A stretch of 64,000 bases of DNA from Verrucomicrobiota bacterium. Its GTDB lineage: Bacteria; Chlamydiota; Chlamydiia; Chlamydiales; SM23-39. The DNA is taken from NCBI GenBank assembly GCA_028873375.1, contig JAGWKU010000001.1, forward strand, positions 11,763-75,762. The letters are read 5' to 3'. Numbering within the stretch: the stretch's first letter is position 1; each line of letters opens with the position of its first letter. The translations under genes and the position numbers were made by a program. Below the pieces are notes generated by a model that did not search any database, was not told where the DNA came from, and saw only the letters and a program-made list of their open reading frames with translations. Below are positions 25,064-27,399 of the stretch, in pieces.

Positions 25064-27399
25064 AGCCTAAAAAATGGTGGATTTTCTTTTTAGCCTTCCC
25101 TTTGTGGGGAGAAGCTGAAGGAGAGACTGCTGAAAGTCCTTCCGAAGCAGGTTCGTCCTTTTTAAAAGCCGACGCAGAAGGGGCGATTCGCTTCAATTTC
25201 TCGCTGCGTCAATGGAAAGACTTACTCAAAGAAAAATTTCTCGCTGCTGAGCAGTTGATGAATAGCGGAGCTCCTGAGGGAGAGTTTGCGCCGCTTCTTG
25301 CTGAAGTGCGAAACATTCGAACAAAGATCAGCCAGTTAGAAGAACAATGGCGCCGCACAGCAGCCAATGAAGTGGCTGGAGGAGAGGAGCCCTACGCTCT
25401 CTGGGATATGGGAGAGACGACGGTTGCTCAGCTTGTCATGGAATATGGAGCTGCTGACAGCTTATACATCATTCCGCCCGAACTGAGTTCGATGAAGATC
25501 AGCTTGTTCACTAACCTTCCTTTGCCGCGGGAGACGTGGAGCGACCTGATTGAAGCAATTTTGATCCATAACGGGGTAGGTGTTAAGAAGATAAATGCAA
25601 ATGTAAAGCAGCTTTACATTTTAAAACTCGATCCTTCAGCGATCGAGGCGGTCGTTGATCGAGAAGAAAAATTAAGCCTCTTTGTGAATCATGCCCGCCT
25701 CTTTTTCGTCTTGACTCCTCCTCCAGAACAAATCAAAGCGGTCCAAGCCTTTTTTGAGCGTTTTTCGGATCCTAAGCAAACCACAGTTCAGGCGATGGGA
25801 TCAAAAGTTATTTTGGTTTCATCTAAAGAGACAATCGAAAAATTATTGGGCCTTTACCACACGGTCTGGGAAAGCAATACGGGAAAAGTAGTTCGGCTTA
25901 TCTCGCTGGTGAAGATGCAGGCAACTGAAGCTGAAAAGGTGTTGAAAGCAGTCTTTTCAGATAGTTCGACCAAAGCGCGACCTTCTTTTTATCCTTCAGG
26001 CGCAGATGAATTGATTGTATTGACGCTGCCGCAAGGACTTGTGCTGATTGGAGAGAAAGAAACGGTCGATCGAGGGCAACACATTTTAGAAGACTTGGAA
26101 AGTCAGCTCGAAGACCCGGGCGAGAAAGTCATCTATTGGTATACCTGTAAACATTCGAATCCCGAAGACATTGCGGCAGTTTTAGAAAAAATTTACGACT
26201 CCTTGATTGGATCCAATTTTGACAAGAAAGCAGAGCCTCCACCCCCACCTCCCCCTGTTCCTCCGGTGCCCCCGCAAGAACCGAACGGAGCGCAAATTTT
26301 TCCGCCACCGAGCAATGCCTATAATCCCATTCTTCCTGCCCAGGCTCCTTTCATGCAGCCGGGAGTTATTGAGAAGAAAGCGAATACCAATTTTGGAAAT
26401 TTCGTGGTCGATAACAAGACGACCTCGATCTTGATGGTTGTAAAGCGAGAAGAGCTGCCAAAAATCAAAAGTTTGATCAAGCGGCTCGACGTGCCCAAAA
26501 GAATGGTACAGCTCGATGTTCTCCTCGTGGAGAAAAAATTGCATGACCGTCGCCAGGTGGGCTTTAATTTGCTGCAAATCGGGACGAATTCAAGCGGAGT
26601 CAAAGAGTCAGCCATGACTTTTGACAACAACGCGAGTGCTTTTCATCGCGGCATTCTCAGTTTTATTTATAGCAAGCCGAACAGCAGCGGATCCCCCGCG
26701 ATGGATCTCGTCTATAACTTCCTGCTTGCTCAAGAAGATATTCGGATCAATGCAAATCCTTCTGTGTTGGCGATTAATCAAACACCGGCCACCGTTTCAA
26801 TTGTAGAGGAAATTTCGATCAATAACGGCGCGATCCAATTGAACACTCAGGCAGGTGTAACTGTTGAGCAGTCGTATACTCGTGCTCAGTACGGTATTAC
26901 CATTCTCCTAACACCGACGATTCACTTGGCCGATAGTGAAAACACCGATGAGCTCGCACGACCTGGCTTTGTCTCTCTCCAAACCAATTTGGAATTTGAC
27001 ACAACTCAGATGACGGCGAACGATCGACCTCCTGTGACGCGTCGCCATGTTGAGAACGAAGTGTGTATTCCAGATGGAGAGACGGTGATCCTGGGTGGAT
27101 TGCGTCGAAAAATTGAAGAAGATACCCGCGATAAAATCCCATTCCTCGGAGATTTGCCAGGAATTGGCAAACTCTTTGGCCTCACCAAATCGGTCGATAC
27201 CAATACGGAGATGTTTATTTTTATCACTCCTCACATCATTCACGATCCAGTCGACGATCTGCGACAGATTCGACAAACAGAGTATCAATTGCGAGCAGGA
27301 GACGTGCCAGAATTTTTAGCCTGCATCGATGAAGCCAAAGCTAAAGAGCGAAGGAAGCTGTTTGGGAATAGTATGAAAATGTTGTTTGATATGTATTGA
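25060..27399 (+). CDS. gspD: Type II secretion system secretin GspD
   Basis: It has a signal peptide and the C-terminal secretin block ETVILGGLRRKIEEDTRDKIPFLGDLPGIGKLFG...TEMFIFITPHII. The preceding N-domains include VVKREELPKIKSLIKRLDVP. Confidence 0.9.
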   Translation: MKPKKWWIFFLAFPLWGEAEGETAESPSEAGSSFLKADAEGAIRFNFSLRQWKDLLKEKFLAAEQLMNSGAPEGEFAPLLAEVRNIRTKISQLEEQWRRTAANEVAGGEEPYALWDMGETTVAQLVMEYGAADSLYIIPPELSSMKISLFTNLPLPRETWSDLIEAILIHNGVGVKKINANVKQLYILKLDPSAIEAVVDREEKLSLFVNHARLFFVLTPPPEQIKAVQAFFERFSDPKQTTVQAMGSKVILVSSKETIEKLLGLYHTVWESNTGKVVRLISLVKMQATEAEKVLKAVFSDSSTKARPSFYPSGADELIVLTLPQGLVLIGEKETVDRGQHILEDLESQLEDPGEKVIYWYTCKHSNPEDIAAVLEKIYDSLIGSNFDKKAEPPPPPPPVPPVPPQEPNGAQIFPPPSNAYNPILPAQAPFMQPGVIEKKANTNFGNFVVDNKTTSILMVVKREELPKIKSLIKRLDVPKRMVQLDVLLVEKKLHDRRQVGFNLLQIGTNSSGVKESAMTFDNNASAFHRGILSFIYSKPNSSGSPAMDLVYNFLLAQEDIRINANPSVLAINQTPATVSIVEEISINNGAIQLNTQAGVTVEQSYTRAQYGITILLTPTIHLADSENTDELARPGFVSLQTNLEFDTTQMTANDRPPVTRRHVENEVCIPDGETVILGGLRRKIEEDTRDKIPFLGDLPGIGKLFGLTKSVDTNTEMFIFITPHIIHDPVDDLRQIRQTEYQLRAGDVPEFLACIDEAKAKERRKLFGNSMKMLFDMY
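25599..25621. repeat. Palindromic repeat AAATGTAAAGC-a-GCTTTACATTT, copy inside gspD
   Basis: Perfect 11-bp arms. It is read in frame as ANVKQLYIL. Confidence 0.95.

Follow-up and report, generated by a model that had tools for sequence, protein, structure and literature searches.

A Perfect Palindrome Within the gspD Reading Frame of an Environmental Chlamydia as One Copy of an Iterated Double-Stranded DNA Word

The gspD Gene and Its Palindrome

The DNA considered here is a 64-kb stretch of contig JAGWKU010000001.1 (hereafter, the window), in which the gene for the type II secretion secretin GspD carries a perfect palindrome within its coding frame. The two features at the centre of the analysis are the following:

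25060..27399, plus strand: gspD, an open reading frame (ORF) of 779 amino acids encoding the type II secretion secretin, with Pfam matches to Secretin (residues 558-727) and Secretin_N (residues 361-481)
25599..25621, no strand assigned: perfect 11-1-11 palindrome flagged in a first-pass annotation, in frame in gspD as A NVKQLYI L

An NCBI protein named GspD, derived from a genome bin, matches the product of ORF 25060-27399 at 100% identity. At 25599-25621, the window reads AAATGTAAAGCAGCTTTACATTT, i.e., two perfect arms of 11 nt around a single central base (AAATGTAAAGC-A-GCTTTACATTT). The codons GCA AAT GTA AAG CAG CTT TAC ATT TTA yield ANVKQLYIL, so that the in-frame palindrome of the first-pass annotation is borne out by both sequence and translation; the central base is A in this copy because the Gln codon CAG is invariant. 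The palindrome corresponds to residues 180-188 of GspD, upstream of the Pfam N-domain match, and lies 540 nt inside gspD, which is the first large gene of a gspD-E-F-pseudopilin cluster. Its assignment to the N-terminal periplasmic domain region stands with respect to position only. No named domain is assignable, as a PDB sequence search with the part of GspD around residues 180-188 gave nothing significant. Farther along the protein, a proline-rich spacer, EPPPPPPPVPPVPPQEP (residues ~391-408, window ~26230-26280), falls within the Secretin_N span 361-481, upstream of the secretin domain.

Conservation of the gspD Site

The first-pass annotation implied that a copy of the element had landed in the gene and proposed aligning GspD orthologues to look for an indel at this site. 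In this alignment, the segment (V/A)KQLYILKLDPSAIE runs without a gap through 120 GspD homologues down to 60% identity, and no indel accompanies the copy located in recC either when RecC homologues are compared. The landing of an element in the gene is therefore not upheld. On the evidence of these alignments, the gspD copy evidently arose by base substitution and not by insertion. Annotators can take from this that a palindrome lying in frame is not necessarily an insertion.

For codon comparison, the DNA of 80 gspD relatives was taken from metagenomes. Fifteen homologues encode VKQLY, 11 of which (50-80% amino acid identity, 38-53% G+C) use exactly GTA AAG CAG CTT TAC, mostly with the preceding T and the following AT as well; in the remaining four, the sole difference is GTC in place of GTA. 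Under the codon usage of the window, this string of codons has a probability of ~0.0013 per sequence. In the homologues encoding AKQLY, for which the palindrome is impossible, the same codons vary (AAA/AAG/AGA, CTC/CTT, and TAT). When the codons of 20 homologues are aligned, every other five-codon window of gspD is under weaker synonymous constraint than VKQLY, whose mean pairwise codon identity is 0.844 versus 0.416 for the gene as a whole and 0.653 for the next unrelated window.

The functionally conserved peptide V-K-Q-L-Y-I alone sets 10-11 of the 17 bases forming the core of the palindrome, and the approximately six free synonymous positions stay palindromic across a clade of environmental Chlamydiota. 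As the peptide fixes most of the core and the synonymous remainder is held, the gspD site can be regarded as a cheap, pre-adapted, and very old copy, older than the divergence to 50% amino acid identity. It is the oldest and clearest example of the word, and the codon comparisons indicate that the palindrome prevails over codon choice even within a peptide that ranks among the secretin's best conserved.

The first-pass annotation further held that the conserved object is a DNA or RNA palindrome and not a peptide, an argument expected to weaken if the peptide were conserved in homologues whose DNA lacks the palindrome. Such homologues occur: among the loci fetched for comparison (designated by L numbers), KQLYILKLDPSAIE is retained in the AKQLY forms of L122, L123, L142, and L186, and also in L126-128, where GTC for GTA leaves one mismatch. 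The peptide is thus not a by-product of the palindrome, and conservation at the DNA level stands regardless, carried by the occurrence of the word in two frames, by its intergenic copies, and by the synonymous constraint. What has to be given up is the denial of peptide conservation, at least at gspD, together with the RNA part of the claim.

Copies of the Word in the Window

Searched at up to three mismatches, the palindrome has eight matches in the window, and all eight carry the exact 17-nt core TGTAAAGC-N-GCTTTACA; dinucleotide-preserving shuffles gave 0.00 matches. In the lineage of the window, the word is extended to (C)AAATGTAAAGC-S-GCTTTACATTT(G), with TGTAAAGCS as half-word. Two of the eight copies are included in ORFs (recC and gspD), the other six being intergenic or at ORF ends, for a density of ~1 per 8 kb. 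Besides the gspD copy, they are as follows, with no strand assigned to any of them:

5420..5442: copy in recC, in frame as KCKAALHL, without indel against homologues
15641..15663: first member of a tandem pair, located 18 nt past the rpoD stop codon, found at the same place in the relative L197
15679..15701: second copy of the tandem pair, missing in L197, which has an unrelated stretch of equal length there
33632..33654: copy overlapping the TAA stop codon of a MORN-repeat gene (30952-33633) and set in intergenic DNA between converging genes
40039..40061: copy flanked by two convergent genes, its TAA being the stop codon of a minus-strand major facilitator superfamily transporter gene (40054-41289)
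49165..49187: copy located between the divergent genes tolQ and tatD, with its end 10 nt ahead of the tatD ATG
63589..63611: copy placed at the 3' end of ORF 63588-63893 (minus strand, unannotated) and upstream of a tRNA gene

The recC copy is indeed read in a different frame from that of gspD, as the first-pass annotation had it, its codons being AAA TGT AAA GCG GCT TTA CAT TTA. At this site, CKAAL is confined to the two closest RecC homologues, within an otherwise variable stretch, and their DNA preserves the 17-nt core, of which the centre base varies. The recC ORF as mechanically called starts at the TTG at 4391 (1057 amino acids), whereas the deposited protein has 985 amino acids, which places the start near 4607.

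The convergent intergenic region following the copy at 33632 also includes a G+C-rich, highly structured stretch (33690-33960), in which perfect hairpins are formed by 21-nt arms (33762-33806) and by 15-nt arms (33882-33912). This stretch may be an unannotated structured RNA. It is absent from every fetched locus, and a permissive Rfam scan of 33600-34050 returned hairpin artefacts only, without any credible match; at the gathering score, the Rfam scan of the window yielded two tRNAs and nothing else.

Half-Words and Their Orientation

No 8-mer exceeds its expected count in the window as strongly as the half-word GCTTTACA/TGTAAAGC, which occurs 35 times (~1 per 1.8 kb) for 1.9 expected. Within ORFs, 23 are seen versus 3.06 expected from the encoded peptides and codon usage (P = 3e-13). 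Single half-sites standing outside palindromes number 19 for 1.55 expected, a 12-fold excess, and they are often extended to TGTAAAGCC(AG). As for complete palindromes, copies are all-or-none: 135 are exact, 13 have one mismatch (mostly at the outermost base), and six have two. The 19 single half-sites, again without assigned strand, are:

5813..5820: TGTAAAGC in recC
6660..6667: GCTTTACA in recC
7156..7163: GCTTTACA in recC
7942..7949: GCTTTACA in recB
7986..7993: GCTTTACA in recB
9405..9412: GCTTTACA in recB
9731..9738: GCTTTACA in recB
10265..10272: TGTAAAGC in recB
11757..11764: GCTTTACA in recD
16565..16572: GCTTTACA in an aminotransferase gene
16941..16948: TGTAAAGC in the aminotransferase gene
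18287..18294: TGTAAAGC in mreC
18451..18458: GCTTTACA in a minus-strand glycerophosphotransferase-like gene
24013..24020: TGTAAAGC in the ORF upstream of gspD (23852-25063)
26439..26446: TGTAAAGC deeper in gspD (VVKRE)
36825..36832: TGTAAAGC in a minus-strand tetratricopeptide repeat protein gene
47744..47751: GCTTTACA in a minus-strand ORF (47298-47945) of the tol cluster
54731..54738: GCTTTACA in an amino-acid permease gene
59916..59923: GCTTTACA in minus-strand mnmG/gidA

The recBCD genes constitute a hot spot, with 10 of 27 units in 12% of the window (4391-12123); in L197, the segment 3854-11367 holds 10 of 13 units, several of them at orthologous codons. This density in and around recBCD, the over-representation of the 8-mer, and its presence in phages, where Chi can also be found, could point to a polar signal for RecBCD or FtsK, of the Chi or FtsK orienting polar sequence (KOPS) kind. 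Such a role is nevertheless highly implausible. The two orientations of the 8-mer stand at 15 and 20 with respect to the plus strand, and at 9 and 10 half-sites relative to transcription. No association of half-site polarity with GC skew was detected either, the ratios being 34:55 in positive-skew blocks and 26:35 in negative-skew blocks (Fisher P = 0.61), i.e., ~54% on the presumed leading strand when pooled. Moreover, the palindromic form is orientation-free by construction.

Another short word, CATCGATG, is moderately over-represented, with nine sites in the window versus 3.2 expected and seven versus 2.9 in the relatives. No such excess was found in other chlamydial loci or in phages, and CATCGATG is not a second host word common to phages.

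Reading Frames, Placement, and Folding

Coding copies use exactly two open frames, read as VK[QPRL]LY in 54 cases and as CKAAL[HQ] in 36, because the third frame reads ATG TAA. The different frames of the recC and gspD copies are therefore the expected outcome. The TAA of the motif, in the closed frame, becomes the stop codon of the gene, hence the many cases in which a stop lies inside the motif. Approximately 50% of 133 chlamydial palindromes are within ORFs, the remainder being crowded at stop codons, and most intergenic copies abut stop codons or separate convergent or co-directional genes. Divergent regions account for 11 of the 55 classified intergenic copies in chlamydial loci and for two of 73 in phage loci.

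This placement bears on the possibility that the gspD site is a gene-specific operator, one site of a transcription factor regulon (e.g., of the Fur/Zur/DtxR type with an n-1-n box) controlling the gsp operon. The site is the best-conserved copy and occupies a position 540 nt into the first large gene of the cluster, and the n-1-n dyad with its AAATGT...ACATTT ends presumably resembles a Zur box. An operator of this type remains improbable: eight exact copies and 19 half-sites are gathered within 64 kb, next to unrelated housekeeping genes, few intergenic copies are found in divergent regions, and the degenerate versions usual among regulon sites are absent. The copies are, in short, too many, too exact, and mostly outside promoter regions for an ordinary regulon operator.

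The many copies located directly past stop codons, and in phages between the stop codon and the next ribosome-binding site, are also what could be expected of an RNA hairpin acting as terminator, mRNA 3'-end protector, or processing or ribosome-pausing site. The tandem pair after rpoD does fold strongly when both copies are taken jointly (-33.8 kcal/mol). Single palindromes, however, form hairpins of -6.7 to -9.8 kcal/mol only (z -1.0 to -2.9), that of gspD reaching -7.1 kcal/mol (z -1.95), and none is followed by a U-tract. A terminator scan of the window did not call the copies, promoter-like matches being at shuffle level, and in L241 a canonical terminator is present downstream of the palindrome. 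The sequence is invariant and not covarying. Its flanking bases are conserved without lengthening the stem, since complementarity beyond flank position 2 does not exceed what base frequencies predict; extension or covariation in the flanks was detected at flank position 2 in chlamydial copies only and nowhere in phage copies. The centre base, preferentially C or G, has no sense-strand bias, and the single half-sites, which do not fold, are 12-fold enriched and orientation-neutral. Canonical termination was thus discarded on account of the weak stems, the missing T-run, and the terminator scan. The ribosome pausing or transcript processing envisaged in the first-pass annotation receives no support from the weak hairpin, the orientation-neutral half-sites, and the unbiased centre base, and any RNA hairpin function is very improbable.

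From the same data, we infer that a factor with two-fold symmetry probably reads the word on the DNA duplex, whichever its orientation. The comparisons show the gspD palindrome to be a member of a genome-wide family of copies of a short double-stranded DNA word, apparently kept in place by substitution.

Mobile Palindromic Elements

Short palindromes dispersed in genomes are often mobile, and identical copies, a strongly lineage-dependent copy number, the preference for gene 3' ends, and the tandem pair after rpoD could be understood in these terms. The same holds for the sporadic occurrence of the word in a phage family, in which paired copies bracket small ORFs (L241 and L268). The element would then be similar to a repetitive extragenic palindromic (REP) sequence with its REP-associated tyrosine transposase (RAYT) or to a MITE (miniature inverted-repeat transposable element), and the in-frame copies would be tolerated insertions comparable to Rickettsia palindromic elements (RPEs).

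The resemblance to REPs and bacterial interspersed mosaic elements (BIMEs) concerns a short palindrome present at ~1 per 8 kb, mostly at gene 3' ends between convergent or co-directional genes, and occasionally in tandem. Nevertheless, REPs are extragenic, imperfect, GTAG/CGTC-tagged, and inserted, whereas the chlamydial word is perfect and untagged, with half of its copies in frame in ORFs without indels. With RPEs, it shares the in-frame location of a palindromic repeat inside conserved protein genes of an intracellular bacterium. RPEs, however, insert 30-50 residues, whereas the chlamydial word adds none and the peptide is kept in palindrome-free homologues.

Transposition of the REP, MITE, or RPE type is strongly argued against by the observation that length changes neither at the gspD and recC copies nor at any gained or lost half-site. 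Among the fetched genome loci, conservation does not extend past ~23 bp and no target duplications were found; no transposase or RAYT domain was detected among the annotated ORFs of the window. In addition, the gspD site predates the divergence to 50% amino acid identity. A mobile element is therefore improbable, slightly more so than the operator considered above.

Distribution Among Chlamydiae and Turnover

The window is chlamydial core genome, with recBCD, rpoD, mreC, mutY, the gsp cluster, tol-pal, sdhAB, mnmG, and dnaB. Its first ORF (19-468) matches the major outer membrane protein family of Chlamydia (MOMP-like Chlam_OMP domain), every named close relative of GspD is chlamydial, and the RecC relatives all belong to Chlamydiales. 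The NCBI label of the source bin, Verrucomicrobiota, contrasts with this content. Between recD and rpoD, the window also includes a gene for a CoiA-like competence nuclease (12972-13850, minus strand; Pfam CoiA_N and CoiA_nuc), whose equivalent in L197 is located at 11723-12592.

An exact scan for ATGTAAAGCNGCTTTACAT, with one genome per species, returned at least 116 blocks. Among the matches listed, 68 of the 78 with a taxonomic label are from Chlamydiota, distributed over several orders, seven are from 'Verrucomicrobia' bins comparable to the mislabelled source bin of the window, and three from others, two of which are mutually homologous and probably mis-binned; 38 further matches are unlabelled. 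Several motif-bearing contigs labelled 'Verrucomicrobia', 'Limnohabitans', and 'Algoriphagus' look similarly mislabelled or mis-binned, L041 and L084 being 85% identical in protein. Within ~10 nt of the motif, a second short palindrome type, GGGG(N)CCCC (e.g., GGGGTCCCCGA), accompanies it in L005, L010, L046, L067, L083, L111, and L116, which suggests composite repeat clusters in other chlamydial bins.

The close relatives L197-199 (48 kb of DNA; RecC ~60% identical) are as dense in the 8-mer as the window, with 35 occurrences versus 2.6 expected, and they keep both the recC copy, with its varying centre base, and the copy after rpoD. Between six genes of the window and their L197 orthologues, seven half-sites are common, six are found in the window only, and six in L197 only, with equal length throughout. 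At the level of these alignments, old sites persist while others turn over, evidently by substitution. Farther away, 747 kb around distant gspD genes contain no palindrome at all.

In L198 and L199, a conserved intergenic palindrome sits between thrS and an outer membrane protein gene. About 2 kb from it, two genes form a pair, one ParA/CbiA-like and the other belonging to UPF0137 (L198 1725-3227; L199 1832-3334), the family of the chlamydial plasmid protein pGP6-D. This pair is a possible lead for the DNA-binding partner of the motif.

The Word in Phages

In the IMG/VR viral collection, the 17-mer has at least 120 blocks (L200-L319), as compared with six and 15 matches in the whole collection for two composition-matched control palindromes. 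Among the viral matches listed, 58 loci constitute one family of ~40-kb lambdoid phages with genes for a PBSX-family terminase large subunit (TerL), a P22-type portal, ERF, YqaJ, RusA, and Rep_O. TerL of these phages is at most 36% identical to that of known phages. No nucleotide similarity was found between phage loci and chlamydial loci, and a PHROGs comparison of the phage ORFs adjoining the copies was uninformative.

In phage loci, 38% of the copies are in ORFs, most of the others occupying the gap between two co-directional genes, from the stop codon of the one up to shortly before the ribosome-binding site of the next. Copies are found at 4298, 7441, and 11248 in L235. In L241 (9700 and 10031) and L268 (4907 and 5232), a pair of copies brackets unrelated small ORFs in the manner of cassette boundaries. 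The motif is sporadic in the family, L341 having no copy in 21 kb, and filled and empty sites were compared at TerL coding sites only. About ten phage matches correspond to the terminase peptide GVKQLYIDPS, which may reflect codon chance in so large a family. To our knowledge, only small Microviridae phages have been described for chlamydiae.

An Uptake-Type Word or a Site for a Symmetric Protein

By analogy, the word probably joins a known kind, that of iterated genomic words maintained in situ, such as uptake signals or the cyanobacterial highly iterated palindrome HIP1 (GCGATCGC). The likeliest process maintaining it, although held at somewhat less than even confidence, would be a drive of the type acting on the DNA uptake sequences (DUS) of Neisseriaceae and the uptake signal sequences (USS) of Pasteurellaceae. 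Word-bearing DNA would be preferentially taken up and recombined in natural transformation, word-bearing alleles would spread wherever coding constraints permit, and inverted pairs would accumulate just past stop codons. Such a drive is favoured because it would account at once for sites turning over, for densities that depend on the lineage, for half-words being enriched only where coding restricts the full dyad, and for the location of the most stable copy at a conserved peptide that renders it almost free of cost. The competence context of the window consists of the CoiA-like gene and the secretin and pseudopilin cluster.

Several features are shared with DUS and USS. The half-word is the most over-represented short word, at ~1 per 1-2 kb as counted in the window and L197-199, with both orientations equal and no association with GC skew. 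Its copies in ORFs arise by substitution, use few frames, and leave the proteins undisrupted, and inverted pairs stand just downstream of genes. Stable old copies occur beside turnover, the word being clade-wide and its density lineage-dependent, and recBCD and genome-maintenance genes are enriched. The RecBCD and genome-maintenance bias is documented for the uptake signals of Pasteurellaceae (bioRxiv 10.1101/2025.10.24.684340), and the features of frame and conservation have been described for uptake signals (PMC2817400). In Chlamydia trachomatis, ComEC-dependent DNA uptake is documented (PMC6686042), and both this uptake and recombination between co-infecting strains are established (PMC6686042, PMC8936141).

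Other features argue against an uptake-type drive or call for a further assumption. The organism is a chlamydia that is uncultured and, as all known chlamydiae are, presumably obligately intracellular. Known uptake signals are asymmetric words of 9-12 bases, unlike the strict 17-bp dyad (8-1-8) found here. None of the 19 single half-sites of the window is intergenic, i.e., copies in unconstrained DNA always have the form of the strict dyad. In contrast to the pairs of DUS and USS, the palindromes at stop codons are not predicted terminators, since they fold weakly (-7 to -9 kcal/mol), are devoid of a T-run, and escaped the terminator scan. Most related lineages have a low density: the 174 kb around the 11 gspD genes keeping the site contain only three other copies (~1 per 58 kb), so that gspD itself provides 11 of the 14 local copies; genome matches contain ~1 extra copy per 95 kb, and density is ~7-fold different between lineages. 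The gspD site is nevertheless retained in these sparse lineages, which would be explained equally well by a limited number of functional binding sites. Finally, the presence of the palindrome in phages requires the extra assumption that the bacteria in question are infected or lysogenised by them. The dyad symmetry, the non-terminator character, and the low density in most lineages are better accommodated by a symmetric DNA-binding protein of the chromosome, a view that we regard as possible rather than probable.

For such a protein, whether nucleoid-organising, ParB/KorB/Noc-like, or repressor-like, the copies would be HIP1-like architectural sites or transcription-blocking sites. A few tens of sites per genome, including that of gspD, would be selected, their number would have grown in the lineage of the window, and half-sites would bind weakly. 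This alternative, which remains tentative, finds support in the perfect 8-1-8 dyad, the independently conserved flanks of the half-sites, the C or G preferred at the centre, and the presence of the site in phages too. It is also consistent with orthologous coding sites being kept where the motif is rare, both at gspD and in the pairs L021/L031, L006/L076, and L081/L104. The 13-bp KorB operator TTTAGCSGCTAAA presumably has the same AGC-S-GCT centre.

HIP1 is the closest published iterated palindrome, conserved in and between ORFs and attributed to selection, possibly on nucleoid structure (PMC5861425). Like the chlamydial word, it is a palindromic word of a large clade, strongly over-represented, conserved within and between ORFs, and without evidence for a role in peptide, RNA, or gene regulation (PMC5861425). 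The chlamydial word differs in its length (17-23 bp versus 8 bp), in its far lower frequency, and in that no link to a methyltransferase site is apparent. Conservation between genomes of the HIP1 type is found at gspD, at recC, and at the site after rpoD; periodic spacing along the chromosome, of 10-90 kb, is another trait of this type.

Against a symmetric protein, approximately half of the half-sites turn over by substitution and density is ~7-fold different, unlike a fixed functional set. The 12-fold enrichment of single half-words, in ORFs only, would hardly be expected of an obligate dimer. None of the annotated ORFs next to a window copy encodes a candidate binding protein, and no ParB-like gene was found in the 146 phage ORFs scanned, apart from one weak ParB_N match in L342.

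Implications for Chlamydial Gene Exchange

An uptake-type drive can be extended to the whole distribution, in which case the word would be a self-recognition or DNA uptake signal of a large environmental Chlamydiota clade and the lambdoid phages would be their tailed phages or prophages. This extension is doubtful. Literature searches covering the sequence itself as well as palindromes and uptake sequences of chlamydiae retrieved no earlier description of the word, of an iterated palindrome, or of an uptake signal in Chlamydiae.

As a practical marker, the word flags mis-binned or mislabelled chlamydial contigs and points to a phage family possibly sharing the host. If it is not an uptake signal, it would be a binding word for a chromosome-organising factor. 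If it is one, Proteobacteria would no longer be the only group with an uptake-type signal, the new one would be palindromic, and sequence markers would directly reveal gene flow and the links between phages and hosts in a phylum that is uncultured and intracellular. For DNA exchange in chlamydiae, for which no sequence signal is known, the word is a concrete and testable candidate.

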